Origin: Elusimicrobiota bacterium
GTDB taxonomy: Bacteria; Elusimicrobiota; Elusimicrobia; UBA1565; UBA9628
Direction: 5' to 3'
NCBI GenBank assembly: GCA_016204945.1
Contig: JACQJQ010000097.1
Location: 1-46,517, forward strand
Length of the DNA: 46,517 nt
In this document: positions 7,596 through 42,218 of the stretch, one piece after another
How the letters are laid out: each line of letters begins with the position of its first letter
Numbering within the stretch: the first letter of the stretch is position 1
Program-made: the position numbers and the translations under genes
The notes under the pieces: model-generated
Told to the model about the DNA's origin: nothing
The model's input: the letters and a program-made list of their open reading frames with translations, nothing else
The model's database searches: none

Positions 7596-7673
7596 GGGTA
7601 TAGCATGCCCGGGAAGCCGTCGAAGTGCATGGGCCTTTAGGGCGCTGATTTTTAGGCCCGACATGGGTCCGTT

Positions 7674-20994: not shown

Positions 20995-22815
20995 CTATTC
21001 TACAATTGCCGGAGCCAGGGAGAGGTGCTCGGCGAGGAACGCCTCGGCCTTGGCGTAGAAATCGAGGCGGTTGGAGGGCTTGGCGAAGCCGTGGCCCTCG
21101 TCGGGATACAGCAGATACGCGACGGGCTTGCCCTTGGCGCGCAGGGCCGCGACGATCTGCTCCGCTTCCGCCTGCTTCACGCGCGGGTCGTGGGCGCCTT
21201 GGGCGATCAAGAGCGGAATATCGATCTTGTCGACATGAAACAGCGGGGAACGGGACTTCAGGAATTCTTCTTCGCGCTCGATGGAGCCGACGCGCAGGTC
21301 GAACACCCGCTTCATCGGCTCCCAGTAGGGAGGGATCGATTTGATCAAGGTGACGAGGTTCGAGGGTCCGACGACGTCGATGGCGCAGCGGTAGACGCCG
21401 GGCGTGAAGGCGGCGCCGGCGAGCGCCGCGTAGCCGCCGTAGGAGCCGCCGTAGATCGCGACGCGCGCGGGATCGGCGATGCCCCGCGCGACCGCCCAGC
21501 GGACGCCGTCGGTGAGATCGTCCTGCATCTTGGCGCCCCACTCGCGGTCGCCGGCGTGCAGGTGGCGCTTGCCGAAGCCGGATGAGCCGCGGTAGTTGAG
21601 CTGGAGCGCGGCGCAGCCGAGGCTCGCGAGCCACTGCGCCTCGGGGTGGAAGCCCCAGCGGTCGCGCACCCACGGGCCCCCATGGACGAGCACGACGAGG
21701 GGGAGTTTCTCGGCCGCGGCGCCGTTCGGCGTCGTGAGGTAGCCGCGCACCGTCAGGCCGTCGCGCGCCGCGTATTGCACCGGGGTCATCGGGGCCAAGG
21801 TATAGGGCGCGAGCCTGGGGCGCGCGGCGAAGAGGGGAGAGGCGGCGCGCTTGAGGCGGTCCCAGCGCAGGAAGGCGGGGGAGCGGTCGGGCCTGTCCAC
21901 CAGGACGTACCAGACGGCGTCCGCGTCGTCGCGGCTGACGATGGAGACGTCGCCGTCGAGGGCGGAGAGCGCCGCGAAATCGGCCTCGAGCTTGGGGTCG
22001 AGGACGCGCCAGGCGCGCCGGTCGAGCTCGAAGGCGGCGGCCTCGACGGCGTGGTCGCGCGGATGGAGCAGGACGGCGCCGAGGTCGGACTCGGGGTGCT
22101 CGGCGATGATTTTCCCGGGCCCGCCCGCGAGCGGGGCCTCGAACAGCGCGGTCGTGTCGCGATCCACGCTCGACTCGATGTAAATATTTTGACCGTCGGG
22201 CGAAAATCCGTGCGCGCCCAACTGGTCGTCGGGGCCGCATGTCAAGAAGTCGCGCCAACCCGCGCCGTCGCGGACGCGCAGAATCGTGCCGCCGTCCGGG
22301 GCCGCCGCCTTGTGCAGGCCGATCTTGAAATCGCGGTCCGGCAGCCAGCCGATCGCGTCGCCGGGGTTCGTCGCCTCGAGCGCGCGCTCGCCGGTTTTGA
22401 GGTTGAGGCGCCAGACGTCGTGCAGCTTGGGGTCGCGGTCGTTGAGCGCGACGAGGATCTCGTCCGGGAAGCCGGGCTCGGTCGCGACGATCTGCGCCTG
22501 CACGCCCGGGTAGGGGGTCAGGTCGCGGGCGACGGAGGTTTCCAGGTCGGCCTGGTAGAGGTGCCAGTTCTCGTCCCCGTTGAGGTCTTGCAAATAAAGA
22601 ATCGAGCGCTCGTCCTCCGCCCACAGGAAGACGCGGATGCCGCGGCCGCGGTCGCGGGTGAGGGGCTTGGCGGGCCCGCCCTCGGGGCCGACCCAGATGT
22701 TGAGGACGCCCTCGTCCGGGGCGAGGTAGGCCCAGAGCTTTCCGTTCGGGGAGATCTTCGGCGAGGCCTTCTCCGGGTTGCCGAAGAGCAGCTCGCGCGG
22801 GACGCGTTCGTTCAT
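20995..22815 (-). CDS. S9 family prolyl oligopeptidase / dipeptidyl aminopeptidase
   Basis: N-terminal beta-propeller region. C-terminal alpha/beta hydrolase with nucleophile GGSYGGY, then QGAHDPRV and DEGHGF. Confidence 0.85.
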   Translation of the reverse strand: MNERVPRELLFGNPEKASPKISPNGKLWAYLAPDEGVLNIWVGPEGGPAKPLTRDRGRGIRVFLWAEDERSILYLQDLNGDENWHLYQADLETSVARDLTPYPGVQAQIVATEPGFPDEILVALNDRDPKLHDVWRLNLKTGERALEATNPGDAIGWLPDRDFKIGLHKAAAPDGGTILRVRDGAGWRDFLTCGPDDQLGAHGFSPDGQNIYIESSVDRDTTALFEAPLAGGPGKIIAEHPESDLGAVLLHPRDHAVEAAAFELDRRAWRVLDPKLEADFAALSALDGDVSIVSRDDADAVWYVLVDRPDRSPAFLRWDRLKRAASPLFAARPRLAPYTLAPMTPVQYAARDGLTVRGYLTTPNGAAAEKLPLVVLVHGGPWVRDRWGFHPEAQWLASLGCAALQLNYRGSSGFGKRHLHAGDREWGAKMQDDLTDGVRWAVARGIADPARVAIYGGSYGGYAALAGAAFTPGVYRCAIDVVGPSNLVTLIKSIPPYWEPMKRVFDLRVGSIEREEEFLKSRSPLFHVDKIDIPLLIAQGAHDPRVKQAEAEQIVAALRAKGKPVAYLLYPDEGHGFAKPSNRLDFYAKAEAFLAEHLSLAPAIVE

Positions 22816-22818
22816 GGG

Positions 22819-23859
22819 CTAAAAGCGGTATGCCGTCGAAACCTGCAGGCGGCGCACGAAGGTGCCGCCGGAACGGTCCTCGTATTCGCCGTCGAGCTTC
22901 AGCTCCAAACTGTCGAAAGGCTTCATGCCCAGGCCCAGGTGATACACCGAGGCGGTGAAGGAGTTGAGCGAGCCCGAGCCCGCCTCGAAGGGCTCCTCAT
23001 AGCGGCCGAACGAGGGGCTGAACCGGAAGGTCTCTCCCCGGGCGTGCAGGTTCGAGGAGAGCAGGTAGCCCCAGCGCAGCAGCGCGGCGCCGCCTCGGAA
23101 CTGGGTGGTCGTGGCGCTCAGGCGCGCGCCGAGCTCGGCGTAGGGCCGCGGCCAGAAGTAGAGGGCGGCGGACTGCGTGTAGACGTGGGTGGGAGCGTAC
23201 TCGGAGACGCGCGCCGATCCTTCGGCGTGCAGGCCGGGTATCAGGGAGCGTCCCCAGGATCCCTCCCAGTTCCAGCGCGGCAGCACGGCCGCGCGAGGCG
23301 CCACGGACAGGCGCATGTAGCCTCCATGGGTCGGCCCCCTCCAGGCGGCTCCCAAGGACTGGGACTGGTCCGTGTTGTGAAAGCGGCGCAGCCTCTCGGC
23401 GCCCGCCAGGAAGGACCAGCCGCGGCGGACGGGGACGACGGCGTCCATGCGCCAGGAGTATCCCGGGCCCATGCGGTTGTACCGCTCGCTGCCGTAGGCC
23501 AACTCCACCTTGGGAGGGGCGACGGGCGAGCGGAGAAGCTCCGCGTTCTCCTCGCGCGGTCGCGACCACGAGAGCACGTCGGCCAGCCCCGATGCCGCGT
23601 CCCCGTGATCCGGGCGGGCGGCCAGGATCCTGCGGTACAGCGCCTCGGACTCGGGGTAGCGCTTGCTCCAGGAGTAGAGCTTGGCCAGGCGCGCGGCGGC
23701 GTCGAGATTCCCGGGATCGGAGGAGACGAGCGGCTCCAGCAGGCCGATCGCCTTGGTCCAATCGCCGGCCTTCTCCGCCTCGATCGCGCTCTCGAGGGCC
23801 GGCTGGGCCCGCGCTTGGAGGGCCGTTCCCGCGAGCAGCAGGACCAGGAGCAGCCTCAT
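22819..23859 (-). CDS. Outer-membrane protein with an N-terminal TPR region and a YaiO-like beta-barrel
   Basis: ATG 23859 overlaps the GT2 stop (ATGA). Signal peptide MRLLLVLLLAGTALQARA. TPR-like helices, then Gly/aromatic strands ending ...STAYRF. Confidence 0.65.
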   Translation of the reverse strand: MRLLLVLLLAGTALQARAQPALESAIEAEKAGDWTKAIGLLEPLVSSDPGNLDAAARLAKLYSWSKRYPESEALYRRILAARPDHGDAASGLADVLSWSRPREENAELLRSPVAPPKVELAYGSERYNRMGPGYSWRMDAVVPVRRGWSFLAGAERLRRFHNTDQSQSLGAAWRGPTHGGYMRLSVAPRAAVLPRWNWEGSWGRSLIPGLHAEGSARVSEYAPTHVYTQSAALYFWPRPYAELGARLSATTTQFRGGAALLRWGYLLSSNLHARGETFRFSPSFGRYEEPFEAGSGSLNSFTASVYHLGLGMKPFDSLELKLDGEYEDRSGGTFVRRLQVSTAYRF

Positions 23860-25244
23860 GCTTTCGCCATGCCCCGGCGCTCCATGTCTCCCCAATTCTT
23901 GGAGCCGCGCGCGAGGTCCCACAGGGCCCGGGTGCGGATGAAGGCCAGCGCTTGGCGGTAGCCGAAATTCTCCAGGATGCCGGTGGCGATCAGGCGGCCG
24001 AGGTCGAGCAGCTTCGGGTATCTCTCCATGGACACCTCCTCGATGAGAATGGCGAGCAAGGACAGCAGGATGCCGATGAGGATCGCCAGGGAAAAGAAAA
24101 TGCCGAACGACTCCCAGTTGATCGTTCCCGTGAGAGCCCCGGCCAGGAACACGGCGTAGCCGAAGGCCTCGACCAAGGGGCTCAAGGCCTCGACGAAGAT
24201 GAAGTAGGGCATGGCGACCAGCCCGATCCAGCCGTGGCGGGGGTTGAAGAGCATGCCGATATGCGCCGCGAGGCTTTCGCTGAGGCCCCTCTGCCAGCGG
24301 TTGCGCTGGCGCGACAAGACGCGCCAGCTCTCCGGCACCTCGGTCCAGCAGACCGGATCCGGCATGAAGTGGAAGCGATAGCGCTGCTTCTTCTTCGATA
24401 AGAGCTGATGCAGGCGCACCACCAGCTCCATGTCCTCTCCGACCGTGTCGGTGCGGTAGCCGCCGGCTTCCAGCACCGCCTCTTTCTTGAAGATGCCGAA
24501 GGCGCCGCTGATGATGAGAAGGGCGTTCATCTTGCTCCAGCCCAGGCGGCCGGAGAGGAACGCGCGCAGATACTCCACGATCTGGAACCTGACCAGCCAG
24601 CGCTTGGAGAGCGAGGCGTCGGAGATCTCGCCTTGGCGGACGCGGCAGCCGTTGACCGCCCGCACGATGCCCCCGGTCGCCGCCGTCTCCACGTAGGCCT
24701 CCATGAACGGGTGGATGACGCGCAGCAGGGCCTCGTTTTCCAGGATGGAATCGGCGTCGAGCGAGCAGATCAGGGGGTAGGTGCTGAAGTTGATCCCCGC
24801 GTTGAGCGCGTCGGCCTTGCCGCCGTTCTCCTTGTCGATGACGACGAGGTTGGCGACCTCCGCGGAGCGGTAGATTCCGCGCACGTCCTTGCTGGGGAGC
24901 ATCTTGTGGTAGATCCGCTTGGTCTTGCGCAGCTTGAAGCGCTCGGTGAGCGCGGCCATCGTCTTGTCCTTGGAGCCGTCGTTGATGACGATGATCTCGA
25001 ACTCGGGGTAGGACAGCTTGCGCAGGGACAGGACGCTGTCGACGACTCCTTTCTCCTCGTTGTAGGCGGGTAGGAGCACCGAGACGGGCGGGGTGATGCG
25101 CGCCTTGAGGATCTCCTGGGGGGTGGCGAAGCGCGCGCGCAGCTGGTGCCGGATGATCGCCCAGAAGGAGACGGCGAACATGATCAGATAAACGACGCTG
25201 ACCCCGAGAAAATACAGGATGATCGAAGAGCTAAGAATTTTCAA
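23856..25244 (-). CDS. Processive family-2 glycosyltransferase (PgaC/IcaA/NfrB-like exopolysaccharide synthase)
   Basis: VSVLLPAYNEE, VINDGSKD, SLDADS, VGEDMEL, RQRNRWQRG, plus N- and C-terminal TM helices. TTG start, overlapping the HEAT gene by 14 nt. Confidence 0.85.
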   Translation of the reverse strand: MKILSSSIILYFLGVSVVYLIMFAVSFWAIIRHQLRARFATPQEILKARITPPVSVLLPAYNEEKGVVDSVLSLRKLSYPEFEIIVINDGSKDKTMAALTERFKLRKTKRIYHKMLPSKDVRGIYRSAEVANLVVIDKENGGKADALNAGINFSTYPLICSLDADSILENEALLRVIHPFMEAYVETAATGGIVRAVNGCRVRQGEISDASLSKRWLVRFQIVEYLRAFLSGRLGWSKMNALLIISGAFGIFKKEAVLEAGGYRTDTVGEDMELVVRLHQLLSKKKQRYRFHFMPDPVCWTEVPESWRVLSRQRNRWQRGLSESLAAHIGMLFNPRHGWIGLVAMPYFIFVEALSPLVEAFGYAVFLAGALTGTINWESFGIFFSLAILIGILLSLLAILIEEVSMERYPKLLDLGRLIATGILENFGYRQALAFIRTRALWDLARGSKNWGDMERRGMAKA

Positions 25245-26331
25245 GTTCGTCCAGCCATTGCGCGGCCATGTCCCGCGCGAATCGGTCCGCGGAGCCCTTT
25301 TGCGCCCGGCGCAGGGCCGCGCGTCCGGGCGCGCCCAGCGCCGCCAGCGCCTCGCCGGAATTGCGGCGCACCCACCACTGCCGGTCCTCCAGGCCGCGGC
25401 AGAGGACCGGGATGGCGCCGGAGGCTCCGACTCGCCCCAGCGACTTGGCCGCCTGGGCCCGGAGCTCCCAGACGCCGTCGTCCGCGCATGCGGCCAAGGT
25501 CGCCTCGGCGCGAGGGTCGGCGAAGCCGCCCAAGGCCTTGACGGCGGCGATCCGCACCCCCACCGGCTGGGGGGGCTTGGCCATGCCCAGCACCGTCTCG
25601 AAGGAGCGCGGGTCCCTGAGCTCGCCCAGAAGATGCACGACCAGGAGGCGGACCGCGGCGTCGGGGTGCCCGCAGACGGCCAGAAGCGGCTCCACCGCCT
25701 TCTCGCCGAGCTCGAAGACCGTGGAGGAAAGCCGCATCCCGGCCAGGCGCGAATAGCCCACCAAAGCGGTGATGATCGGCTCGACGACGTCCGCGTCGCC
25801 GATCCGCCCGAGCGCCCAGGAGCCGAGCAGGCGCACCTCCAGCACGCCGTCGCGCAGGGCCTCGAGCAGGCGGCCCTTGGCGGGGCGGCAGCGCATCTGC
25901 CCCAGGCAGCGGGCGGCCTCGGCGCGGACCCACCAGAACGGGCTGCGCAGGCGCCTTAAATCGCCGTCCATGAATCCCAGCTTTTCGTAGGCTTCGGCCA
26001 GCCGCGCGTGCGTCTCTCCCTCGGCCCCGAAGCTCCGCCGCACCAGGAGGTACCGCGCCGCCTCCGGGGCCCGCCGCGCCTGCGACGCCAGGGGCTCCAG
26101 GCGGCGGGTCGGGCCGGAGAGATGCTCCTCCAATAGCGGCGCCAGGACCGCGGTCCAATAGGCTTCCCGGCGGCGGCTGAGTATGCGCCCGGCCTTCATG
26201 AGCAGCAAGGCGACGATCAGCCCCGCGACCAGGAGCGCGAGGGCCTGGGTCGAGGCCCGCATCATTAGAAAGAGCGTCTCTTGGCTGAATCTCACGCGAT
26301 CTTTTGGGATTGTATGATTTCTCGCGTCCAT
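25231..26331 (-). CDS. Membrane-anchored HEAT-repeat protein
   Basis: One N-terminal TM helix, then repeated HEAT/PBS-lyase-like units: VRLLGSWALGRIGD, AVRLLVVHLLGELRD, VRIAAVKALGGFAD, ELRAQAAKSLGRVG, WVRRNSGEALAALG. The start is uncertain. Confidence 0.7.
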   Translation of the reverse strand: MDARNHTIPKDRVRFSQETLFLMMRASTQALALLVAGLIVALLLMKAGRILSRRREAYWTAVLAPLLEEHLSGPTRRLEPLASQARRAPEAARYLLVRRSFGAEGETHARLAEAYEKLGFMDGDLRRLRSPFWWVRAEAARCLGQMRCRPAKGRLLEALRDGVLEVRLLGSWALGRIGDADVVEPIITALVGYSRLAGMRLSSTVFELGEKAVEPLLAVCGHPDAAVRLLVVHLLGELRDPRSFETVLGMAKPPQPVGVRIAAVKALGGFADPRAEATLAACADDGVWELRAQAAKSLGRVGASGAIPVLCRGLEDRQWWVRRNSGEALAALGAPGRAALRRAQKGSADRFARDMAAQWLDELENS

Positions 26332-26900: not shown

Positions 26901-27374
26901 TCAAGGATTCTCCGTCGAGGCCTCGACGAGGCGGATGGCGTCGCGGCCGGACTCGCGAACCTCGTCGGGGACGTGGGGCAGTCCCAATTCCTCGTGGGTA
27001 TGCCAGCGGATGTCGTCGCTTTCATCCGGGCGATGGGCGTGGGCGCCCGCCTTGGCGCGCAGGTAGTAGATGAAGTCGATGTGGTGGTTGTGCCCGGGGA
27101 TTTCCTCGATCTGCACCCGCTGGGGCTCGTGCAGGGACTCGACGCGGCCGCCGCGCAGGACGGGCGCTCGCGGGGGCGAGATGAACTCGGCCTCGAGGCC
27201 GGTCTCCTCGCGCACCTCGCGCAGGACGCCCTCGTCCGTGGTCTCTCCCTCCTCGATGTGTCCGCCCGGGGGCAGCCACATCCCGAGCTTTTTGTGCTTG
27301 AGGAGGAGGGTCCGGCCGTCCCGGACCAGGTAGCCGGTGGCGACGAAGCAGCAGCGCCGCTTCGCCGCGCTCAA
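26901..27374 (-). CDS. NUDIX hydrolase
   Basis: Nudix box GGHIEEGETTDEGVLREVREETGL. The TTG start overlaps the upstream stop (TTGA). Confidence 0.9.
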   Translation of the reverse strand: MSAAKRRCCFVATGYLVRDGRTLLLKHKKLGMWLPPGGHIEEGETTDEGVLREVREETGLEAEFISPPRAPVLRGGRVESLHEPQRVQIEEIPGHNHHIDFIYYLRAKAGAHAHRPDESDDIRWHTHEELGLPHVPDEVRESGRDAIRLVEASTENP

Positions 27375-27829
27375 GGCGCCTGGTGGGAGGTGTCGAACGT
27401 GCGGCGCGCGGCGATGCGCTTCATTTCGGCGGCGGCGGCCGGATTCTCCCGAAGGACGAACTTGAAGTCGTCTGCGACCAAGGTGAACAGCGAGGTCGGC
27501 TCGGCGCAGACGACGCCGGCGTTGCGCGGCTCGTCGGAGATCAGCGCGGTCTCTCCCAGGAAGTCGCCGGCCCTCAAGGTCGCGACCTTCTTCGAGAGCA
27601 CGAGCCAGCGCCGCAGGCGGATCTCGACGCTGCCCTGGTGGACGATGTAGAACGCGTCGCCCTTCTGGCCCTGCGAGAAGACGGTTTCGCCCTTGTCATA
27701 GGAGTAGAGCATGATCGAGGGCAGCACGCGGTCGAGCTGGCCGACGGTGAGCGGGGTGAAGAACTCGACCTTGCGCAGCATGTTGGCGAGGAGCCCGAGC
27801 GCGTCCGCGCCGATCTCGATTTTTTTCAT
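27371..27829 (-). CDS. Stand-alone cyclic-nucleotide-binding (CAP-effector type) domain protein, with no output domain
   Basis: 152 aa. Beta-roll with an intact phosphate-binding cassette: GDFLGETALISDEPRNAGVV. No HTH or other domain follows. Confidence 0.85.
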   Translation of the reverse strand: MKKIEIGADALGLLANMLRKVEFFTPLTVGQLDRVLPSIMLYSYDKGETVFSQGQKGDAFYIVHQGSVEIRLRRWLVLSKKVATLRAGDFLGETALISDEPRNAGVVCAEPTSLFTLVADDFKFVLRENPAAAAEMKRIAARRTFDTSHQAP

Positions 27830-27843
27830 GAGACGACTTTACT

Positions 27844-30800
27844 TTATTTCCGGGCGGGTTTCGCGTGCAGCTCGGCTTCGAGCAGGGCGGTGAACGCCTT
27901 CACCGCGGCGTCGAGGTTCTGCTTCGCGGTGGTCCTCGCGCGGCCCTGCCGGAAGGCGCGGGCCCGGCTGACTTCCGCGAGCGGCCTCTCCGCCTGGCCG
28001 GCGAAGATCTCGGCGAGCCGGGAGTCCGCGCCCAGGAAGGCGTCGTTGCGGCCGGGGTGAAGGTAGCCGATGACCTCGTAGAACTCGCTCTCCGTCAGGC
28101 CGCCGGCCTTGGCGAAGCGGGCGATTCGGTCCCGGTACCAATTTTGGTCGTGCGCCTCGAGCAGATCGGCCACCAGCTGGTTTTCCATCCGCCGCAGGAT
28201 GAGCCCGAGCTTGTCCACGGTCTCCGGCGGCAAGGACGAGAAGAACGCGTACTGCGACCCCCCCTCCGCGCCGAAGCGCTCGATGGTGCCGCCCCGGGGA
28301 TCGAAGCCGAGCTCGTAGACCGCCTTCCAGAGCAGCTTGGTCGCCTGCAGGATGTCGTTGGAAGGGCCCGGCGTGACGTCCAGCACCGAGAGGTCGCCGC
28401 GCGGGTCCTTGCTCATGAAGATCCGCTCCATCGCCCGCGAGCCGAGGGCGGAATAAAGCCGCGCGATCACGCTTCGCGCCGTCTGCTCCTGGGCGGCGTA
28501 CTTCACGTAGCCGCCGACTCCCGGCTTAGGGGGGACGGCCGTCGCGTACTCGAAGCGCAGGCCTAGCCGGACGGCGGCGTAGGCATGGCCGAACTCGTGC
28601 ACCGCCGTCTTGATCCGCTCCACGGGCAGGCGGCCCGTCGCGGCCAAGGGCGGGAAGATCAGCGCGATCTCCTTGCGGTAAAGCTCCAGTTTTTTGCGCG
28701 AGGCGCCGCTTCGAGGCGCGAGCGTGGCGATGATCTCGGACTTGCCGGGCTTGAAGTCGAGGATGATGGTCGCGGGCGCCGTGGCCAGGCGCGAGGACTT
28801 GGGGATGCGGGCCAGGGCCTCCTCCAAATGGGAGGCGATGCGGTTCTGCGCGACGACGACGGTGTTGCGCGCCCCTTCCGAGGGGATGACCGTCTCGCCG
28901 AACAGGTAGCGGCGGTAGGCGGGCGTCATCTCGACGGCGAGCCGGCTTTTGTCCGTCAGACGGGTCTTGGCGACCTTGTCGGCCTGAAGCGCGATGAGCT
29001 TCCTGTAGTCGGGAGCGTCGAGCGGATTCATGATGTGCGCGCGCGGCATGAGCCGGCTGACGGTCTCGGGCAGGAACATGCGTCCCAGGACCTGCTTGAG
29101 CGCCGACGGCGTCATGGCCAAGGTCCGCGCCGCCCGCCGGGTGTCCTCGATGCTGGTCAGCCGCGGGTCGGCCTCGAAGCCGAACAGGTCGCCGCGGAAG
29201 TTCATGGTGATGATGTTGTAGGCGTCGCGTATGTCGATGACTTTATCGCGCCCGTAATCGCTTTTCGCCGGGATCGACGCCGTGCCGTCCTGCAGCAGGT
29301 CCTTGATGGCCGCCATGATGGGGCGGTTGACGACCATGCCCTGCTGATCGACCTCGAAGACCTTGTCGAGCTCCTCGAACAAGACGACGAACTTGCCGCC
29401 CTTGGCCTCTTTGCGGGCCACGGCGATGCCTTCGGCCAGGGTCTGTCCGAAATTCGCCAGGGCGTCCTGGGCGTCCGACGAGAAGGCCTGCATGTTGACG
29501 CGGACGGCGGGAAGATCGAGGTGCTTGGCGGCCAGATTGGCCAGCTCCGACTTGCCGATGCCGGGGAAGCCGGCGAACACGAGAAAGGGGGGCTGGCTGG
29601 CGACGGGTCCCGGGCGGTTGAGATAGGCGTTGAGCTCCTTCTCCACGAGCCGGCTGTGCTCCTCTTGTCCTATGAGGGACGCGTTGATCTTCTCGGCCAA
29701 CCCGGCGGCCAATTTCCGGCTCTTGGGGAAGCGGGCGGCGAAGACCTCTTTCTTGGTCGTGCGTTTTTCCTTCTCGGCCTGTTCCGGGAAATCGGGAGGG
29801 GCCGAGGCGATGCCGTCGGGCTGGGCGAAGAGCTTGGCGCTCGCGTCGAACTGCGCGGAGAACGTGAAGGCGGTTCCCGCCGCCGGTTTGCCGGAGCGCG
29901 ATAGCCGGGGAGTGACGGTCACTTCGGCCCGTTCGGTCTCGGGATTGAAATCCAAGGAGATCAGGCGCGGCTGGGCGAGAGACGGATCGCCCTCCCTGGA
30001 CGCCTTGGCGCCGAAATGAATCAACTGCTCGGCGAGAGCGTTGACCTTGGCGATCGTTTCGCGGGCGCCCGACGGAGCGAACACCGCGTTCCGGCGCAAG
30101 AACTCCATGAACGCCTTCGTATAGGAGACCGAGAGCCGCTTCGCGGCGTTGTCTTCCGTCGTCTCCTTTTCGATCGTGGCGTCGAGGGTCAGCTTGACGA
30201 TTTGAGCGTAGTCCGAGGCCGAGAGCGGCTTCATGATGACGGTGTTCGGAGCCAGGCGGCTGACCGTGTTGGCGCGGAACAGGCTGCTGAGCAGCTTGTA
30301 GCGCGCCGCGGAGTCCTTCTGGATCCAGGCGTCGAAGGCCTGGAAGTCGTCGATCGTGAAGTCGTAGTACTTCTTGGAGGTCTTGAGCGCGCTCGCGGAG
30401 AAATCCTCGATCTCCTTCGGACTGAAGTTCATCGTGGTGATGATCATGGCGTTGGAGAATCGGACTTCCGTCGCGTACTCCCCGGAGAGGAAGCCGTCGG
30501 TCAGGATTTGGTTGAGAGCCCCGATGAACGGAGTCGTTTCCTCCCCGGTCGCCGTGATTTCCGGCAGCTTGTCGATTTCATCGATCAGCAGGATGTACGG
30601 CTTATCCTTGTTCCTATCCGCGATTTCTCTGAGATCGTCCGCGTAGTCCGACGCGTTTCCGCCGCCTTTGACGTACTTCTGGACGTCGAGGCGCTCCACC
30701 TTGAATCCCAGCCGGGCGATCGCGTCCAGGATAGCGGTTTTCCCGATCCCGGGCAGGCCGATCAGGTGGGCGGCGATGGGGTCCTTGGTCCGCGAGCCGA

Positions 30801-31365
30801 AGCCCTCGAAATACTGGACGAGCCGGTCCTGCACGATCTTCGTCGCGCGGTCCTGCCCGATGATCCTGCGATCCACGAGCTCCTTGAGGCTGCGCGCCTG
30901 CTTGATGAGAGCTTGGCGTTCGTCCTCCCCGAAGCGCGCGGCCGCGATCTCGCGCTTGCGGTAAGGCGCGGACGTCTCGGCGCGCGCGGCGCCGTTTTCC
31001 GGCGCGCCGCCCTCGAAGGCGGCCGCGGCGGCGTCGGCGGACTTGGATGCGCCGTCGAGCGCGGCCTTGGCCGCGACCGGCTGGTCCTGGGCGGGGGTCG
31101 CCGCGGGAACGAGGCCGGCGGCCGGCGTCAGGGCGATCGGCGCGGCGAGAGGCGTGAGCGCGAGGTTCGCGGGCGCGGGCGTCATCGAAAGGTTCGGAGC
31201 CGGGGACAGCCCGCCCAGCGCGGGGCCCACGGCGGCCGAGACGCCGGTCCCGGAACCGATCGGAGCGACTCGTCCCAGCGTCTGCGACCGCGCTTCGCGC
31301 GCTCCCGGTAAAGCGGCGAGAAAGGCGGCCAATGCCAAGCGCGAGAGGATGCCGTTGAGGGTCAT
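27844..31365 (-). CDS. 1173-aa protein: N-terminal hydrophobic signal/anchor, Ala/Pro-rich leader, two ClpB-D2-like (AAA_2) ATPase modules, and a C-terminal FtsH-type M41 zinc peptidase
   Basis: Module 1: IIGQDRATK..., GLPGIGKT (30736-30759), ILLIDEIDK, MIITTMNFS, SRLAPNTVIMKPL. Module 2: LIGQEEHSR..., GFPGIGKS (29548-29571), VVLFEELDK, NIITMNFRG, SRLMPRAHIMNPL. Peptidase: HEFGH (28585-28599), then GPSNDILQATKLLWKAVYELGF, which parallels FtsH GASNDIERAT. Confidence 0.8.
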   Translation of the reverse strand: MTLNGILSRLALAAFLAALPGAREARSQTLGRVAPIGSGTGVSAAVGPALGGLSPAPNLSMTPAPANLALTPLAAPIALTPAAGLVPAATPAQDQPVAAKAALDGASKSADAAAAAFEGGAPENGAARAETSAPYRKREIAAARFGEDERQALIKQARSLKELVDRRIIGQDRATKIVQDRLVQYFEGFGSRTKDPIAAHLIGLPGIGKTAILDAIARLGFKVERLDVQKYVKGGGNASDYADDLREIADRNKDKPYILLIDEIDKLPEITATGEETTPFIGALNQILTDGFLSGEYATEVRFSNAMIITTMNFSPKEIEDFSASALKTSKKYYDFTIDDFQAFDAWIQKDSAARYKLLSSLFRANTVSRLAPNTVIMKPLSASDYAQIVKLTLDATIEKETTEDNAAKRLSVSYTKAFMEFLRRNAVFAPSGARETIAKVNALAEQLIHFGAKASREGDPSLAQPRLISLDFNPETERAEVTVTPRLSRSGKPAAGTAFTFSAQFDASAKLFAQPDGIASAPPDFPEQAEKEKRTTKKEVFAARFPKSRKLAAGLAEKINASLIGQEEHSRLVEKELNAYLNRPGPVASQPPFLVFAGFPGIGKSELANLAAKHLDLPAVRVNMQAFSSDAQDALANFGQTLAEGIAVARKEAKGGKFVVLFEELDKVFEVDQQGMVVNRPIMAAIKDLLQDGTASIPAKSDYGRDKVIDIRDAYNIITMNFRGDLFGFEADPRLTSIEDTRRAARTLAMTPSALKQVLGRMFLPETVSRLMPRAHIMNPLDAPDYRKLIALQADKVAKTRLTDKSRLAVEMTPAYRRYLFGETVIPSEGARNTVVVAQNRIASHLEEALARIPKSSRLATAPATIILDFKPGKSEIIATLAPRSGASRKKLELYRKEIALIFPPLAATGRLPVERIKTAVHEFGHAYAAVRLGLRFEYATAVPPKPGVGGYVKYAAQEQTARSVIARLYSALGSRAMERIFMSKDPRGDLSVLDVTPGPSNDILQATKLLWKAVYELGFDPRGGTIERFGAEGGSQYAFFSSLPPETVDKLGLILRRMENQLVADLLEAHDQNWYRDRIARFAKAGGLTESEFYEVIGYLHPGRNDAFLGADSRLAEIFAGQAERPLAEVSRARAFRQGRARTTAKQNLDAAVKAFTALLEAELHAKPARK

Positions 31366-31369
31366 CGTT

Positions 31370-33148
31370 TCAGTACCAATCCTCGATTTCCGTGGATGTG
31401 CCGCGCCAAAGCTTCCTTTCGGCGGCGCTCAGGAAGCGCTTGTGGACCACGATCTCGAAGACGTTCTGGTCGAACCACTCGCGGTAGAGATGGTAGACGC
31501 CCTTGTTGCCGGCCTGCTCGCCCCAGGAGTTCTCCACCTTGAACTTGACGACGGGCTTCCGGGGGTCCGGCTGGTCGAGGCCGGTGAGGACCATGGCGTG
31601 ATTGACTCCGATCCGGCCGAAGTAGGCGGCCTGCTTGCGCGTCAGGGACGGCGTCGCCTCGTCCGGCGTGAACTCATAGAGCGGCGCGCGGTCGAAGACG
31701 TCCGGGTGCATGATGCCGGTTTTGTGGTCGATGTCCCGGCCGGCGTCGGCCGCGAACCAGACCGGCTGGCCGCCCCTGATCGCCCGGGCGGCCAAGGCGG
31801 CGAGGCGCTCCGAGCGCACGTTGAGGAAGCGGAGGTCGAAGCCGGGTTGCCCGGGCGAGGATTTGCCGATGGCGGAGTTCCTCACCTCGTAGACCTTATC
31901 CGTCTTTTTGCCGGGGTAGCTCGAGACCGAGAGATAGTCGTTCGGGTTGAACTTCACGAAGTCGCGGGCGAACTCGCGCGGAGTGTAGGTCTTGAGGCGC
32001 GCTTGCGTGCTCTGGACGCGGCCGGACGTCCGCGTCCGGCCCGCGCGCCGATGCTCGAAGCGCGACGGAGGCGCGCCGAGGTGCGTGACGAGGATCTTCC
32101 AGACGCGCGTCATGCCTCGCTCCTGGATGTCCCGGGCGAGGCTCGCCTCGCGGCCGGCCTTGTACTGCTTGGCGTTGGCCAGCATCTCCGCGCCGGTGGC
32201 GGCCAGGCTGTCCTGGAGCTCCGCGAGCATCGCCTCGGTCGCTCCGGAGCTGATGGTCTCGCCCATGGCGCTCTTGGGGATCAGGCCGTATTTGGAGACG
32301 AGGAAGGCGAAGTACTCGTACCAGCCTCCGTCCCCGAGATTGGGGGTGACGGCCATGCGGCGCCGGTCGGCGGGAAAATCTTTCGGCGACGAGCGCCGAT
32401 AGACCTTTCGGGCGACCTCCTCGAGGTGCCGGTTGGATTTTTCCAGCATGTTGAAGAAATGGAGGTAGTTTTCCGAGAACTCGAAGTCCTTCGGCGCCGT
32501 CTTGTCGGCCAGCAGCGTGGACCGGATCATGTTGAGGCCGGCGAAAATCCAGCAGCGTCCGGACTGCTGCTGATCGGTGATGGGGCCCATGGGAATCTCG
32601 ACGGTGTAGGCGTCGGCGTGATTCTCGAGAACCCGGCGGTTGATCGCGGCGTTCCGGAATCCCACGCGCTGGACGATGTCCTGCAGGCGCCGGCTCTGGG
32701 CGTCGGCGGACCGGCCGCGGGCGATCATGGCGTCGATCCACGGCAGCGGGATGCCCTCGCCCGGACGCTGCGGGCCGCTTCCATCGAAGGCGGCGTCGGC
32801 GCCGGACTTGGACGCGTCGTCGCTCGACTCGGGGGCGCCGAGGGCCACGGCCTGGAGCGCCGCGCCTTCGAGCGCGGCATGAGCGGCTGCCGGCCTATCC
32901 TCGGAGGAAAGCGCCGTCGGGACGAGGCCGGGGGCGGGCGTCGGAGCGAACAGGAGCGCGGCGTCCGGATTCGCGGGCAAAAGCGCCGAGGCCGGGATCG
33001 GCGCCGCCGAGGCCGCGCCGAGCGGCGCGCCGACCGCGCCCAGGCCCGGAACCGCCGCTCCGATCCTAATCGCGGTCTGCGCGTGAAGCGGGACTCCGGA
33101 AAAAACGGCGAGGAGGGCGCTCAGCAGGGCGCGCGATATGGGTTTCAT
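31370..33148 (-). CDS. C1B-family cysteine peptidase (aminopeptidase C / bleomycin hydrolase-like) with signal peptide and Ala/Pro-rich leader
   Basis: MKPISRALLSALLAVFSGVPLHA signal. Catalytic motifs QQQSGRCWIFAG, VNHAMVLTG, VENSWGEQAGNKGV. Its stop lies 4 nt before the next ATG. Confidence 0.85.
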   Translation of the reverse strand: MKPISRALLSALLAVFSGVPLHAQTAIRIGAAVPGLGAVGAPLGAASAAPIPASALLPANPDAALLFAPTPAPGLVPTALSSEDRPAAAHAALEGAALQAVALGAPESSDDASKSGADAAFDGSGPQRPGEGIPLPWIDAMIARGRSADAQSRRLQDIVQRVGFRNAAINRRVLENHADAYTVEIPMGPITDQQQSGRCWIFAGLNMIRSTLLADKTAPKDFEFSENYLHFFNMLEKSNRHLEEVARKVYRRSSPKDFPADRRRMAVTPNLGDGGWYEYFAFLVSKYGLIPKSAMGETISSGATEAMLAELQDSLAATGAEMLANAKQYKAGREASLARDIQERGMTRVWKILVTHLGAPPSRFEHRRAGRTRTSGRVQSTQARLKTYTPREFARDFVKFNPNDYLSVSSYPGKKTDKVYEVRNSAIGKSSPGQPGFDLRFLNVRSERLAALAARAIRGGQPVWFAADAGRDIDHKTGIMHPDVFDRAPLYEFTPDEATPSLTRKQAAYFGRIGVNHAMVLTGLDQPDPRKPVVKFKVENSWGEQAGNKGVYHLYREWFDQNVFEIVVHKRFLSAAERKLWRGTSTEIEDWY

Positions 33149-38269: not shown

Positions 38270-39190
38270 TTAGAAGCGCACGCCGAAGCCGACGTGGTGG
38301 GCCTGGCCCAGAGTGCGCTTTTCGGCCATGGCGTAGTCGAGCGAGAAGCGGCCCTCGCGCATGCCGACGCCCACGGTCAGGCGCGCGAAGTCGGAGTTGA
38401 GGCGCCAGCCGGCGCGCAGGGCGATCGAGGTCGCGGCGCCGAAGTCCATCGCGAGCTCGGAGCCGAGCGCGCCGATGAGCGCCTCATCCCGCGTCTTGAT
38501 CGCCTCGGCCGAGGCGAGCAGGCGGGTGACGGTGACATACGAATCGACGTCCTTGGCCTCGCCGCTTTTCCAGGACCAGGACGCGCCGCCGCGCGTCGTG
38601 AGGGGAAGGGGATCGCTTTCCCGCTCGAACTTCACGCCCGGCCCGGCGTTCTGGAGGGCGGCTCCCAGGCTCAGGCCCGGGAGCGGCGTCTTCCATTGGG
38701 CGCCGACGTCCGCGGCGAAGCCCGCGGCCCGCGCCTCCTGGGCCAGCTCGAAGCGGTAATGCTTGCCCGCGGCGCCCACCGCGAGGCCGCCGGGAAGCGG
38801 CAGGCCCCAGGCCAGGTGCCCGACGTAGTCGCGCTGGGCGGTCCGCGTCTCCGCCGCGCCGTTCGCGAAATGAAGGTCGACTTTCCCGGCGTCGTAGTAG
38901 GAGAGGCCCGCGGCGGCCGCGCCGGCGGGCAAGGGCTGGGCCCAGCCGATGAAGCCGAAGGAGTCGTCGAGCACGCCGCTGGTGAAGGCCGTTTCGAGCT
39001 GGGCTCGCCGCGCGGCGGCGCGCCCGGCGGGGTTGGCGCCCAGGGACGAGAGCCCGCCGGGAACCGCCGCGTACGCGTCGGCCATGGCGGCGGCGCGCGG
39101 GGAGAGCGAGCGGCGCAAGGTGGGCGAGCCGGCCGCTTGCGTCGGGGCGGCGGACAGGAGAAGGAGGGCCGCGAGCCCGAGCCCGCTCAT
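38270..39190 (-). CDS. PorV/PorQ-like (UPF0164-type) outer-membrane beta-barrel
   Basis: ATG 39190 overlaps the upstream stop (ATGA). Signal peptide, then AMADAYAAVPGGLSSLGANPAG, typical of this barrel family. Ends ...HHVGFGVRF. The track start at 40648 is a shadow extension. Confidence 0.6.
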   Translation of the reverse strand: MSGLGLAALLLLSAAPTQAAGSPTLRRSLSPRAAAMADAYAAVPGGLSSLGANPAGRAAARRAQLETAFTSGVLDDSFGFIGWAQPLPAGAAAAGLSYYDAGKVDLHFANGAAETRTAQRDYVGHLAWGLPLPGGLAVGAAGKHYRFELAQEARAAGFAADVGAQWKTPLPGLSLGAALQNAGPGVKFERESDPLPLTTRGGASWSWKSGEAKDVDSYVTVTRLLASAEAIKTRDEALIGALGSELAMDFGAATSIALRAGWRLNSDFARLTVGVGMREGRFSLDYAMAEKRTLGQAHHVGFGVRF

Positions 39191-40944
39191 CGGATGACCA
39201 CGATCTTGCTCTTGATCGCGATCTTGGGGCCGTTGACCGCGACGAAGTACAGCCCGCTTGGGACCGCCGCGCCGGAGGCGTCCTTGCCGTCCCAGGCTAC
39301 GGTGAAGGCGCCGGCGTCGCGGTGATCGTCGAACAGCGTGCGCACCGGCCGCCCGTCCGAGTCGTACACGCGCAGCGAGACGCGGCCGGAGGAGAAGATC
39401 GTCGTGTCGATCGTCGTCGGCGTCGCGTCCCGAGGGCGCAGGAGATTGCCCGTCAGCACCACGGAGCCCGGAGCGTAGTCGATGAGCAGGGCGTTGGCCG
39501 CCGTGGCCGCAACGCCGTCGGCGTTCGTCACGGTCAGGTCCCAGTTCCCGAGCTCCTGATTCTGGGTCGCGAACGTCGCGGTGATGTGCTGGTCGTCGGT
39601 CCGGTTGACGCTCGTGCCCGCGATGGTGACGGCGCCCTTGGTGATGGAGACCGACGGGAGCAGGGAGAAGATCTCGCCCGCGACGGTCAGGGGAATCGAG
39701 CCCGCGCTTTGGTAGACCGTGGACGGCGACAGCGAGACGGGAGCGGGCGCGCCGGTCAAGGCCGAGCGGACGTCCCCGGTCGAGAAGGAAGCCTCGTAGT
39801 AGGAGTAGTACAGGCGCCAGCGGAAGGAGTCGGTGGAGCGGACCGGAACGGGGGAGGAGAGCGCGCCCGAGGCGACGGCGGTGGAGACGCGAACGCCCGA
39901 CTCCAGCGCGAAGGAGGAGCCCAGGGCGTCGCTCGACAAGGCGCTCAGGATGACGGTGGCGCTCGATGCCCCGCTTTGCGGCTGGGAGTAGAAAAGGCGG
40001 ATGGTGCCGTCGGTCAGCTTGGCGGCTCCGGACTCGTAGGCGGTCGTGGACAGGACGACCGACGAGGCGCCCCACGTGGCGCCCTCGTCGGTCGAGCGCG
40101 CCGTGAAGATCTGGCGGTCCGCGAGGTCGTCGCCCCCGTTGAAGTCGCGCGTGTAGTACAGGCGCCAGTCGCCGGAGTCCAAGACGACGAGGCGCGGCAT
40201 GCCGACGTAGGTCGCCGCGCCGTCGACCGCCGCCGCCGTCTCGTTGGCCCAAGCCAGGCCGTCGGCCGAGGTCGCGCTGTGGATGCGGAAGGCGCCGGTC
40301 GTCGAGACGATGGAGTAGAGCATGCGGAAGCCGCCCGCCGCCAGCGGCTGGAGCGCGCAGCCCGTGATTGCGACGGCCGACACCGAGGGCACGGTGTTCG
40401 TGTCCACGCGCACTCCCGCCTCGCCGGCCCAGGCGACGCCGTCGACCGACGTCGCCGAGAGGATCGCCGTTCCCGAGCTCGCGTGCGGGGCGCCGCTGGA
40501 GACCGCGGGGAGGTAATACATGCGCAGCGGCGCGTAGGCCGCGCCCCCCGTGTCGCCGGTGAAGGCCTGGGCGGTCGCCGAGGAGAGGACGATCGCGCTC
40601 TCCTTGTCGAACACGGGAATCGCGCGCGCGGGCGAGGCGGCGGCCCATAGCAGCGTCCAGATTCCGACGGCCCGGCTCAAGGTCCGCGCCGCTTTCTTGA
40701 GGAAAGCGAGCTTTTCGGCGCGCGCGAGCGCCTTGATCCGGGCTTCCTCGATCAGGGCGGCGGAGCGGGTCAGCCCGTTCTTGCGGTAGACGAGGCGGAC
40801 CGGCCGCCGGCTTCGCGTGTAGGCCGCGCCTCGCCCCAGGTTGTGGGCGCGGATGCGCGCGGCGACGTCCTTGGCGATGCCGGTGTACAGGCTCTTGTCG
40901 GCGCAGCGCGCCAGATAGACGGACCAGACCGCGGAAGGCTTCAC
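39187..40944 (-). CDS. One continuous ORF: GIY-YIG (YhbQ-like) domain, signal-peptide-like helix, BNR/sialidase-like repeat region, and a FlgD-Ig / T9SS-type C-terminal domain
   Basis: GTG 40944 is preceded by AGGA (8-nt spacer). WSVYLARCADKSLYTGIAKDVAARIRAHNLGRGAAYTRSRRPVRLVY is the GIY-YIG part. An internal TTG at 40680 would give MSRAVGIWTLLWAAASPARA. Asp-box STDEGATWG. Tail: RVYDSDGRPVRTLF...WDGKDASGAAVPSGLYFV...KIVVIR. Confidence 0.65.
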   Translation of the reverse strand: MKPSAVWSVYLARCADKSLYTGIAKDVAARIRAHNLGRGAAYTRSRRPVRLVYRKNGLTRSAALIEEARIKALARAEKLAFLKKAARTLSRAVGIWTLLWAAASPARAIPVFDKESAIVLSSATAQAFTGDTGGAAYAPLRMYYLPAVSSGAPHASSGTAILSATSVDGVAWAGEAGVRVDTNTVPSVSAVAITGCALQPLAAGGFRMLYSIVSTTGAFRIHSATSADGLAWANETAAAVDGAATYVGMPRLVVLDSGDWRLYYTRDFNGGDDLADRQIFTARSTDEGATWGASSVVLSTTAYESGAAKLTDGTIRLFYSQPQSGASSATVILSALSSDALGSSFALESGVRVSTAVASGALSSPVPVRSTDSFRWRLYYSYYEASFSTGDVRSALTGAPAPVSLSPSTVYQSAGSIPLTVAGEIFSLLPSVSITKGAVTIAGTSVNRTDDQHITATFATQNQELGNWDLTVTNADGVAATAANALLIDYAPGSVVLTGNLLRPRDATPTTIDTTIFSSGRVSLRVYDSDGRPVRTLFDDHRDAGAFTVAWDGKDASGAAVPSGLYFVAVNGPKIAIKSKIVVIR

Positions 40945-41030
40945 GGGTCCAATCCTAGCAGTCCTATGGGCGTCCGTCCAGAAGCGGCGGCGTAGGTCTT
41001 TAGGCCCATGCGAATCCATGCGCAAAGGCC

Positions 41031-41042: not shown

Positions 41043-42218
41043 GTGAAGATCCTGGGAGGCGCCCTCGCCCTCCTGCTGGCCGCCGGCTCGCCCGCGGGGG
41101 CCGGCCTTCCCGGCGCTCCTTGGCCTTCCGCCTTCCCGGTTCCGCTGCCCGGCCGGGCCGCGCGGCCTCCCGCCCTCGCCGCGCCCGCGGTCCCCGACGT
41201 CGTCTTCAAGGGACGGGCGATCAAGGGCGTCCAGTTCAGCCGAGGCGACCGCATACCGGCCTCCCTCGTCGAGGCCATCGACCTCACCGAGAGGACCCTG
41301 CTTCTCGCGCTCTACGATCTGCGCCTGCCCGAGGCGGCCGACGCGATCCTGCGCGCGAAGGCCCGCGGCGTCGAGGTCCGCCTGGTCTACGACGAAAGCC
41401 ACGCCAAGCTCGACGGCGCCGAGATCCTGTCCGGGCCTTCCGACGAGTACCGGGCCCTCGTCGCCGCGGGCGTGCCGACGCGGCTGCTCAAGGGCGGCGG
41501 CTCCTTCGGGATCATGCACCATAAATACGCCGTGTTCGACGGCGAGCTCCTGATGACGGGCTCGTTCAACTGGACGCGCGCGGCCGACGACAGGAATTTC
41601 GAGAACGCGGCGTTCAAGACGGACCCGGCGCTCATCGCGGGCTTCACCCGCAACTGGGAGTGGATGTGGAGCCTTTCCGGGGCCGCCGCCGGCGCGCCGC
41701 CCGCCGACCCGCTCAGGCCGATCGTCTTCGCCGGCGGCCGGTACCCGCGCTACGCGTTTTCCCCGCGGGGCGGCGTCGAGGATATGCTCGTGGACGCCTT
41801 CGGCCGCGCGCGGCGCACGATCGACGTCGCGATCTTCAGCTTCTACTCCCGGCGCGCGGCCGACGCGCTGATCGCGGCTCGGGCCCGGGGCGTCGTCGTG
41901 CGCGTCGCGGCCGACTCGTCGCAGTCGCGCCGCTCCCAGGCGCTGCTCGCCTTGCGGAGCGCGGGCGTCGATCTGCGCCTGAGCGCGGGCCGGGGCGGCC
42001 TGGGCGTGCTTCATCATAAGTACGCGCTTGTCGACGGCGCTTTGCTGGTCGGCGGCTCCTACAACTTCTCGCAGAACGCCGAGCTCTACAACTTCGAGAA
42101 CGACCTGTTCACCGTGGAGCCCGGCGAGGTCGCCGCGTTCGGCGAGGAGTTCGCCGCGGTCTGGGATCAGGCGCACTTGCCGGCTCCCGGTGAGCTTCCC
42201 GTTCCGGACGGGCCGTGA
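41043..42218 (+). CDS. Secreted phospholipase D superfamily protein with two HKD motifs (Nuc/PLD-like)
   Basis: Signal peptide MKILGGALALLLAAGSPAGA. MHHKYAVFDGELLMTGSFNWT and LHHKYALVDGALLVGGSYNFS. Confidence 0.85.
   Translation: MKILGGALALLLAAGSPAGAGLPGAPWPSAFPVPLPGRAARPPALAAPAVPDVVFKGRAIKGVQFSRGDRIPASLVEAIDLTERTLLLALYDLRLPEAADAILRAKARGVEVRLVYDESHAKLDGAEILSGPSDEYRALVAAGVPTRLLKGGGSFGIMHHKYAVFDGELLMTGSFNWTRAADDRNFENAAFKTDPALIAGFTRNWEWMWSLSGAAAGAPPADPLRPIVFAGGRYPRYAFSPRGGVEDMLVDAFGRARRTIDVAIFSFYSRRAADALIAARARGVVVRVAADSSQSRRSQALLALRSAGVDLRLSAGRGGLGVLHHKYALVDGALLVGGSYNFSQNAELYNFENDLFTVEPGEVAAFGEEFAAVWDQAHLPAPGELPVPDGP

Follow-up and report, generated by a model that had tools for sequence, protein, structure and literature searches.

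Why would an ATP-dependent protease and an aminopeptidase, each with best-characterized relatives that work in the cytoplasm, begin with the same putative export leader? The question is raised by two neighboring genes in a 46,517-nucleotide stretch of DNA from an Elusimicrobiota bacterium (GenBank assembly GCA_016204945.1, contig JACQJQ010000097.1), the whole of which we call the window. Both genes are on the minus strand and co-directional. The upstream one, gene B, encodes a C1B cysteine peptidase of the PepC/bleomycin hydrolase type; the next, gene A, encodes a protein with two AAA+ modules and an FtsH-like (M41) zinc protease domain. The original prediction, made for positions 30991-33148 (all of gene B plus some 125 codons at the start of gene A), was that the two proteins share a leader of about 120 residues that is paradoxical on enzymes of this kind. 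Bacterial proteolysis that depends on ATP is regarded as a cytoplasmic process, since the periplasm is held to contain no ATP. The answer to which we give about even chances is that both enzymes are exported by the Sec pathway, and that the leader is a shared, modular and lineage-specific tether or docking tag.

The leaders of A and B are homologous, beyond what their shared composition explains. Composition-adjusted BLASTP aligns them at 36% identity over 133 amino acids (E = 4e-6), and their Smith-Waterman score of 156 compares with 59.6 +/- 9.2 for 2000 composition-preserving shuffles (z = 10.5, 0/2000 shuffles as high). The similarity persists when only the part after the signal peptide (z = 8.9) or the distal part (z = 8.5) is compared, and it extends to the DNA, where blastn finds 102 nt at 72.5% identity (E = 1e-12). 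Among the 375 six-frame open reading frames (ORFs) of the window, each leader matches only the other. The G+C fraction at third codon positions is 0.85-0.87 in the leaders (0.85 in B) and equal to that of the remainder of each gene, so the leaders are coding and translated. The shared leader that was originally proposed is real.

Aligned long leaders have a common plan: a signal peptide; after the predicted cleavage site, a short stretch of alternating hydrophobic and basic residues (QTAIRI, QTLGRV, QVVKIQ); a spacer rich in Ala, Pro, Ser and Leu; a weak helix; and, 15-35 residues ahead of the catalytic domain, the motif [FYW][DE][GN]. In its strict form the motif occurs in 17/32 long leaders, where 0.41 would be expected by chance (2000 shuffles, maximum 4), and a motif of this type is found in 6/7 of the long-leader AAA homologues, as we refer to members of the gene A family. 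Both leaders are predicted to be intrinsically disordered over ~110 residues each, with residues 16-117 of B below 50 in the predicted local distance difference test score (pLDDT) of AlphaFold 2 (AF2), and with weak helices modeled at residues 88-100 and 113-121. Neither Pfam (E up to 0.01) nor NCBIfam (E up to 1) yielded a match to the leader, also when the leaders were searched alone. In about a dozen of the long leaders Gln is the predicted +1 residue (for example LHA/QTA, ARS/QTL, AWA/QVV and SQA/QFV, the slash marking the predicted cut); an N-terminal Gln could convert to pyroglutamate and so withstand aminopeptidases.

To characterize the N-termini we scored 39 complete AAA and 39 complete C1B sequences. 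The n-region carries a net positive charge in 34/39 AAA and 35/39 C1B proteins (+1 in gene A, +2 in gene B), the hydrophobic core has a median length of 14 residues in the former and 12 in the latter (10 in A, 13 in B), and a -3/-1 cleavage-type site is present in 39/39 of both sets, the sites of A and B aligning with each other. In charge, in a core shorter than a transmembrane helix and in the -3/-1 site, the N-termini of A and B have the features of Sec-type signal peptides and are predicted substrates of signal peptidase I. A signal-peptide-like N-terminus is found in all complete homologues of A and B, from Elusimicrobia and Bdellovibrionota alike. Three other types of export signal were considered and rejected. 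A lipoprotein signal (signal peptidase II) is ruled out by the lack of a lipobox ([LVI][ASTVI][GAS]C) and of Cys in either leader, and of any Cys in A; a Tat signal (S/T-R-R-x-F-L-K) by the lack of RR in the n-regions (MTLNGILSR, MKPISR), RR occurring in only a few homologues; and a type IV prepilin leader by the absence from both N-termini of a Gly-ending leader and the F/M-T-L-I/L-E motif.

Gene A appears, from its sequence, to be an unusual combination: an FtsH-like zinc protease, two modules resembling the second nucleotide-binding domain (NBD2) of Hsp100 proteins, and a signal peptide. In alignments each of the AAA modules corresponds to NBD2 of ClpB, ClpA or ClpC, and the best structural matches (Foldseek) of the AF2 model are subunits of the ClpC, ClpA and ClpB double-ring hexamers (E ~1e-17). 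The model has a mean pLDDT of 82, with the catalytic parts above 90 and a helix at residues 3-17 that corresponds to the signal peptide. The match to Pfam Peptidase_M41 (PF01434) scores 29.0 bits, just short of the curated cut-off of 29.9; the match to NCBIfam TIGR01241 is local (26.8, cut-off 600), and TIGR03346 and TIGR02639 give 46.6 bits (cut-off 1232) and 42.5 (cut-off 993), respectively. By curated scores or by defining features, gene A falls outside FtsH, ClpB, ClpA and Torsin. AF2 also models with confidence a small beta-sheet domain after each AAA module (residues 467-507 and 865-899; window positions 29845-29967 and 28669-28773), and neither of the two has a Pfam match.

The catalytic residues of gene A are strongly conserved in an alignment of 39 homologues. 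Invariant in module 1 are the Walker A residues G203, G206, G208 and K209, together with E263, N313, R370 and GAR at 433-435; here K209 belongs to Walker A, E263 to Walker B and N313 to sensor-1, R370 is the arginine finger and R435 the sensor-2 residue. In module 2, G599, G602, G604, K605, N722, R771, G831 and R833 are invariant and E664/E665 nearly so, and in the protease H923-E-F-G-H927 and D1004 are invariant in all 39 sequences. This degree of conservation shows that both ATP hydrolysis and zinc proteolysis are under selection. There is no Cys among the 1173 residues of the protein, whereas the remaining genes of the window lead one to expect 8.3 (P = 2.5e-4), and its homologues have 0-3 each. 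The near-absence of Cys in the AAA family fits an oxidizing, extracytoplasmic site.

Comparison with characterized systems brings out what is familiar in gene A and what is not. As in FtsH, AAA+ lies N-terminal to a fused HEXXH zinc protease, and D1004 corresponds to the third zinc ligand of FtsH, an Asp in a 'GA..DI..AT'-type motif. However, FtsH has a single AAA domain of the classic clade and two N-terminal transmembrane helices, whereas gene A has two modules of the Hsp100 NBD2 type, a single hydrophobic N-terminal segment resembling a signal peptide, and a predicted location outside the cytoplasm. Two stacked AAA+ modules are shared with the class-1 Hsp100 proteins ClpB, ClpA and ClpC. 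The 'F.P..V.R' arginine motif of gene A matches that of ClpB NBD2, and its GAR sensor-2 is also of the NBD2 type. Unlike in class-1 Hsp100 proteins, both modules are NBD2-like, the N-domain, the middle domain and the ClpP-binding loop are absent, the protease is part of the same polypeptide instead of a separate protein, there is a signal peptide, and the GYVG pore loop is missing. Plasmodium HSP101 (of the PTEX complex) and the Torsins are Hsp100/NBD2-related proteins that carry a signal peptide and act in the parasitophorous vacuole and the lumen of the endoplasmic reticulum, respectively. HSP101 (6e10/6e11) is among the PDB sequence matches to module 2, and Torsin (Pfam PF06309) matches gene A weakly, with 24.9 bits under a cut-off of 27. 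Torsins resemble gene A in having no canonical pore-loop aromatics; they have no arginine finger and a Cys at sensor-2, whereas gene A has invariant arginines and no Cys. Both HSP101 and the Torsins are eukaryotic and have no fused protease, and by analogy they would illustrate a possible mode of work for gene A rather than a family to which it belongs.

By its sequence gene B is a clear, if atypically led, member of peptidase family C1B. It matches Pfam PF03051 (Peptidase_C1_2) over residues 147-591 with 278.5 bits (1e-82, cut-off 22), its best solved relative is the PDB entry for aminopeptidase C, 4k7c (1.8e-55), and the catalytic C199 (in QSGRCW), H517 and N540 are invariant in its clade; the catalytic domain is modeled with pLDDT above 90. 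Whereas the characterized members of the family (PepC, bleomycin hydrolase, Gal6) are cytoplasmic and leaderless, gene B starts with a leader of 136 residues that includes a signal peptide. Its clade is found in Elusimicrobia and Bdellovibrionota, the same taxonomic range as the gene A family, and always has a signal peptide plus either a long leader or a Cys tag, CxxLL, described below. Characterized C1B enzymes are hexameric rings, and a ring of this kind would geometrically suit a hexameric AAA+ partner, by stacking or clustering. Among distant complete C1B homologues, 26/71 have an N-terminal extension containing a hydrophobic stretch, so exported C1B peptidases are not unusual. To regard C1B peptidases as normally cytoplasmic was therefore an overstatement, and the paradox seen in the common leader is a true one for the ATPase but not for the C1B enzyme, in whose family signal peptides are common.

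The gene A family comprises ~44 clusters at 36-69% identity. It occurs in 15 of 185,579 species genomes, all metagenome-assembled: three or four are from Elusimicrobia and the rest from Bdellovibrionota. Only the elusimicrobial members of the two enzyme families have the long leader (100-200 residues); in the Bdellovibrionota members the signal peptide is followed almost directly by the catalytic domain. A search of 1.84 billion representative proteins with a profile built from 21 leaders recovered members of both families and three further proteins, P0167, P0168 and P0170, the last of which has a full-length relative of 548 amino acids in an Elusimicrobia metagenome-assembled genome (P0171). 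In P0167, P0168 and P0170/P0171 the leader has the same plan, with the endings ARFDGS, SMFDGS and RLFDGG, while the C-terminal regions are unrelated to those of the two enzymes and without a Pfam match. The leader is thus a modular, Elusimicrobia-specific N-terminal element that is carried by both enzymes and by at least two or three unrelated protein families.

The leader is not a general attribute of exported proteins in this genome region: at least five other signal-peptide proteins of the window are without it, including two trypsin-like peptidases. A local leader hidden Markov model (HMM), run against the six-frame ORFs of the window and of 23 related loci, found the known AAA and C1B genes only. 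A word-indexed search of 5.8 billion proteins with the leader profile returned one fragment, a result that is not evidence of absence since low-complexity words saturated the prefilter. A PLD-like (PLDc_2) protein encoded on the plus strand at 41043-42218 has a signal peptide and a ~45-residue Ala/Pro-rich stretch without an FDG-type motif; the stretch may be related to the leader in a simpler form, or be no more than a linker.

The leaders are more alike within a genome, across families, than they are between orthologues. The best match of the A leader is the B leader (z = 8.8) and that of the B leader is the A leader (z = 9.5), while between orthologues z does not exceed 6. When the leader of P0167, an unrelated protein, is compared with that of a C1B protein, P0050, z is 18. 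This pattern amounts to concerted evolution or exchange of leaders. It is to be expected if each leader must match further copies of itself or a partner specific to its genome. Such concerted evolution within genomes is unusual in signal or linker regions.

A second co-varying element is found where the long leader is absent. In 32/34 short-leader AAA proteins the sole or near-sole Cys falls in a C-x-x-[LI]-[LF] motif no more than ~10-30 residues from the C-terminus. In 9/10 short-leader C1B proteins [DE]C[AS][AS]LL comes just behind the signal peptide, ~11 residues ahead of the catalytic domain; the remaining one, which is N-terminally truncated, has the motif too. In the long-leader, elusimicrobial members the tag Cys is missing from all AAA (0/7) and all C1B (0/25) proteins. 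The split follows phylum, with named genomes placing the CxxLL members in Bdellovibrionota. The C-terminal tags are found in P0006-P0042 and the N-terminal ones in P0063-P0094 (loci L010, L012, L013, L017 and L019-L022). A lone conserved Cys in an exported protein that otherwise has none suggests a disulfide between molecules, or a shared attachment. CAAX-type prenylation of CxxLL was ruled out, as the motif is usually off the exact C-terminus and is N-terminal in C1B. In our view the co-variation of tags across the two families is the best evidence that the enzymes A and B may be functionally linked.

These observations can be assembled into a model. A and B would be exported by Sec and cleaved just before the shared Gln-Thr. 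The disordered Ala/Pro-rich extension would then serve as a flexible tether that continues into the weak amphipathic helix and [FYW][DE][GN]. This terminal motif would dock on other proteins with the tag, or on an envelope partner that both enzymes share, and docking would co-locate the double-ring AAA+/M41 protease and the C1B aminopeptidase outside the cytoplasm, where the two could degrade proteins stepwise to amino acids. ATP might come from the contents of prey or host cells, or from lysate. We infer export, cleavage, docking or co-localization, joint action and the source of ATP from sequence features. Of the readings first proposed, export fits the sequence evidence best, and a sorting or scaffolding tag is partly borne out by the modularity of the leader, its terminal motif and its position outside Pfam and NCBIfam.

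Functional precedents for such a leader may be found in the tethers of TonB and TolA and in the linkers of LpoA and LpoB, which likewise combine an export or membrane signal with a Pro/Ala-rich or disordered spacer of ~50-100 residues. Spacers of this type place a functional domain across the periplasm. In contrast to these systems, the leader has a cleavage-type site, which suggests that the signal peptide is cut off, no lipobox Cys and an FDG motif that has no counterpart in them, and there is no sequence similarity.

A bolder version, which we put forward only tentatively and consider rather unlikely in its full form, is that of an exported ATP-dependent machine, built of the Hsp100-like AAA+/M41 protein and hexameric C1B, joined by phylum-specific tags and working where ATP exists. 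The tag would possibly be the Ala/Pro leader with FDG in Elusimicrobia and a disulfide-forming CxxLL in Bdellovibrionota. The site of action might, again tentatively, be an invaded or lysed prey cell that contains ATP, by analogy with Plasmodium HSP101 in the vacuole. If the model is true, this would to our knowledge be the first exported AAA+ protease in bacteria. A whole family of fusions of AAA+ and a zinc protease with intact ATPase residues, Sec signals and hardly any Cys challenges the view of ATP-dependent proteolysis as confined to the cytoplasm, or else points to an activity inside prey or host cells. A shared tag that differs by phylum offers a lead to a new co-targeting or assembly mechanism, and may be a sign that some Elusimicrobia live by predation or scavenging.

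Several points weigh against export to a common docking site. We know of no ATP pool in the bacterial periplasm, yet selection clearly maintains the ATPase sites of gene A. In both gene A modules, and family-wide, the GYVG pore-loop segment is deleted or shortened and variable: at residues ~225-250 and 622-650 (window 29700-30700 and 28500-29500) only Q-x-[YF] is left. With the canonical pore loop gone from both modules, classic substrate threading is uncertain. The docking partner of the leader motif is hypothetical, and in the AF2 monomer models of A and B the motif is not docked. The signal-peptide statistics come from a simple script of our own rather than from SignalP or DeepTMHMM, and the charges flanking the hydrophobic segment of gene A (+1 before it, +2 after it) are ambiguous for A taken alone. 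All members of both families are from uncultured organisms. The argument that the two enzymes act together, first drawn from the duplicated leader, is strengthened by tags that co-vary across two phyla but not by synteny: no C1B gene lies within 6-10 kb of ~25 other AAA loci. Clustering of the neighbors of ~20 AAA loci revealed no other conserved neighbor either.

It is possible, although we think it improbable, that the leader is a generic, protease-resistant disordered spacer, found on some exported elusimicrobial proteins and swapped between genes by recombination within the genome, with A and B not cooperating and no docking partner involved. The predicted disorder, the occurrence of the leader on unrelated proteins and the lack of kept synteny are what a generic spacer would produce, and the DNA match of 102 nt would be consistent with a transfer of sequence from one of the two genes to the other. 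However, a spacer of this kind leaves unexplained the helix and [FYW][DE][GN], which are strongly conserved in leaders where aromatics are otherwise rare; it does not account for the CxxLL Cys tag shared by the same two families in Bdellovibrionota, nor for the other exported proteins of the window that do without the leader.

We consider distinctly unlikely a reverse (N-out/C-in) or monotopic signal-anchor that would hold both enzymes on the cytoplasmic face of the inner membrane through a flexible linker; the reverse anchor was also one of the readings first offered. It would solve the ATP problem and make sense of the invariant ATPase residues; FtsH, the closest protease relative, is itself membrane-anchored with cytoplasmic domains, and gene A is more positive on the C side of its hydrophobic segment than on the N side. 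The N-termini as a set argue for cleavage and export instead, with net-positive n-regions, short cores of 12-14 residues and -3/-1 sites that are universal. The near-absence of Cys and the single conserved terminal Cys in Bdellovibrionota are likewise hard to reconcile with a cytoplasmic location, and C1B relatives with plain signal peptides are common.

A role as pro-peptide is possible and compatible with export, though we rate it as still less likely: the leader would keep both hydrolases inactive or soluble during export and be cut near [FYW][DE][GN] on arrival. Many secreted proteases, those of the papain family among them, are made as zymogens, and ahead of both catalytic domains the motif keeps a short and fixed spacing of ~15-35 residues. 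Nevertheless, the leader is modeled as disordered, with no predicted contacts to either catalytic domain, it is also found on proteins without a recognizable hydrolase domain, and the Bdellovibrionota orthologues manage without it. Finally, a compositional artefact of Ala/Pro/Gly low complexity in a 68% GC genome, for which one could cite the strongly biased composition of both leaders and the high HMM bias scores, is refuted by the shuffles and BLASTP result given above, by collinear DNA homology and by motifs that stay in register across orthologues.

Table 1. Features of genes A and B and other peptidase genes in the 46,517-nt window
Feature	Position in window	Strand	Remarks
Gene B	31370-33148	minus	592 aa, C1B cysteine peptidase
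Gene B signal peptide, residues 1-23	33080..33148	minus	MKPISRALLSALLAVFSGVPLHA; predicted cleavage LHA/QTA; n-region net +2, h-region 13 aa
Gene B disordered Ala/Pro-rich leader, residues 24-136	32741..33079	minus	AF2 pLDDT <50 (16-117); homology to A leader
DNA-homology core, B copy	32862..32963	minus	blastn, partner 31049..31147
Gene B F121-D-G motif	32780..32788	minus	16 residues ahead of catalytic domain start (W137)
Gene B C1B (PepC/bleomycin-hydrolase-type) domain, residues 137-592 + stop	31370..32740	minus	Pfam, PDB match, invariant residues
Spacer between B stop and A ATG	31366..31369	minus	4 nt; junction GATTGGTACTGAAACGATG; GAGGA 13-17 nt upstream of A ATG
Gene A	27844-31365	minus	1173 aa, two AAA+ modules and FtsH-like (M41) zinc protease
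Gene A signal peptide, residues 1-27	31285..31365	minus	predicted cleavage ARS/QTL, aligns with B LHA/QTA; h-region LALAAFLAAL
Gene A disordered Ala/Pro-rich leader, residues 28-134	30964..31284	minus	AF2 pLDDT <50 (19-132)
DNA-homology core, A copy	31049..31147	minus	blastn, partner 32862..32963
Gene A F117-E-G motif	31009..31017	minus	F117 is the sole aromatic of the post-signal leader
Gene A AAA+ module 1, ~residues 135-460	29986..30963	minus	ClpB-NBD2-like; Pfam AAA, AAA_2; PDB ClpB NBD2 1.2e-8
Gene A AAA+ module 2, ~residues 538-860	28786..29754	minus	ClpB-NBD2/HSP101-like; Pfam and PDB matches
Gene A FtsH-like (M41) domain, residues 905-1173 + stop	27844..28653	minus	PF01434 29.0 bits, HEFGH
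Window peptidases	6576-7664, 19896-20990, 20995-22815, 42710-43654		

The layout of the locus (Table 1) makes it probable that B and A form an operon, possibly with translational coupling. The B-A pairing is seen only in this window: the C1B locus of P0049 was scanned and has no adjacent AAA gene, and P0008 and P0055, each listed with a longest contig of 4379 bp and therefore suspected to lie on one contig, were ruled out as a second pair because a contig of that size is too small for both genes. A gene for a cyclic-nucleotide-binding protein (27371-27829, minus strand) starts 14 nt past gene A and overlaps by 4 nt with a NUDIX hydrolase gene (26901-27374, minus strand). These two genes may belong to the same operon as A; they are not kept beside AAA homologues elsewhere.

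Further peptidases abound in the window, namely a member of the S9 prolyl-oligopeptidase family, an M42-like aminopeptidase and a pair of trypsin-like serine peptidases that carry plain signal peptides. This set fits a proteolytic (protein- and peptide-degrading) lifestyle. Two glycosyltransferase clusters are also present, one at 13308-17413 with a BcsA-like glycosyltransferase bearing a PilZ domain (15092-17413), and one at 22819-26331 in which a second GT2 glycosyltransferase (23856-25244) is flanked by TPR and HEAT-repeat proteins; both look like exopolysaccharide synthesis clusters under cyclic di-GMP control. A single long ORF on the minus strand (39187-41025) has matches to a GIY-YIG nuclease, BNR repeats and a FlgD-Ig-like domain; either it is an unusual fusion, or the ORF call has joined two genes.

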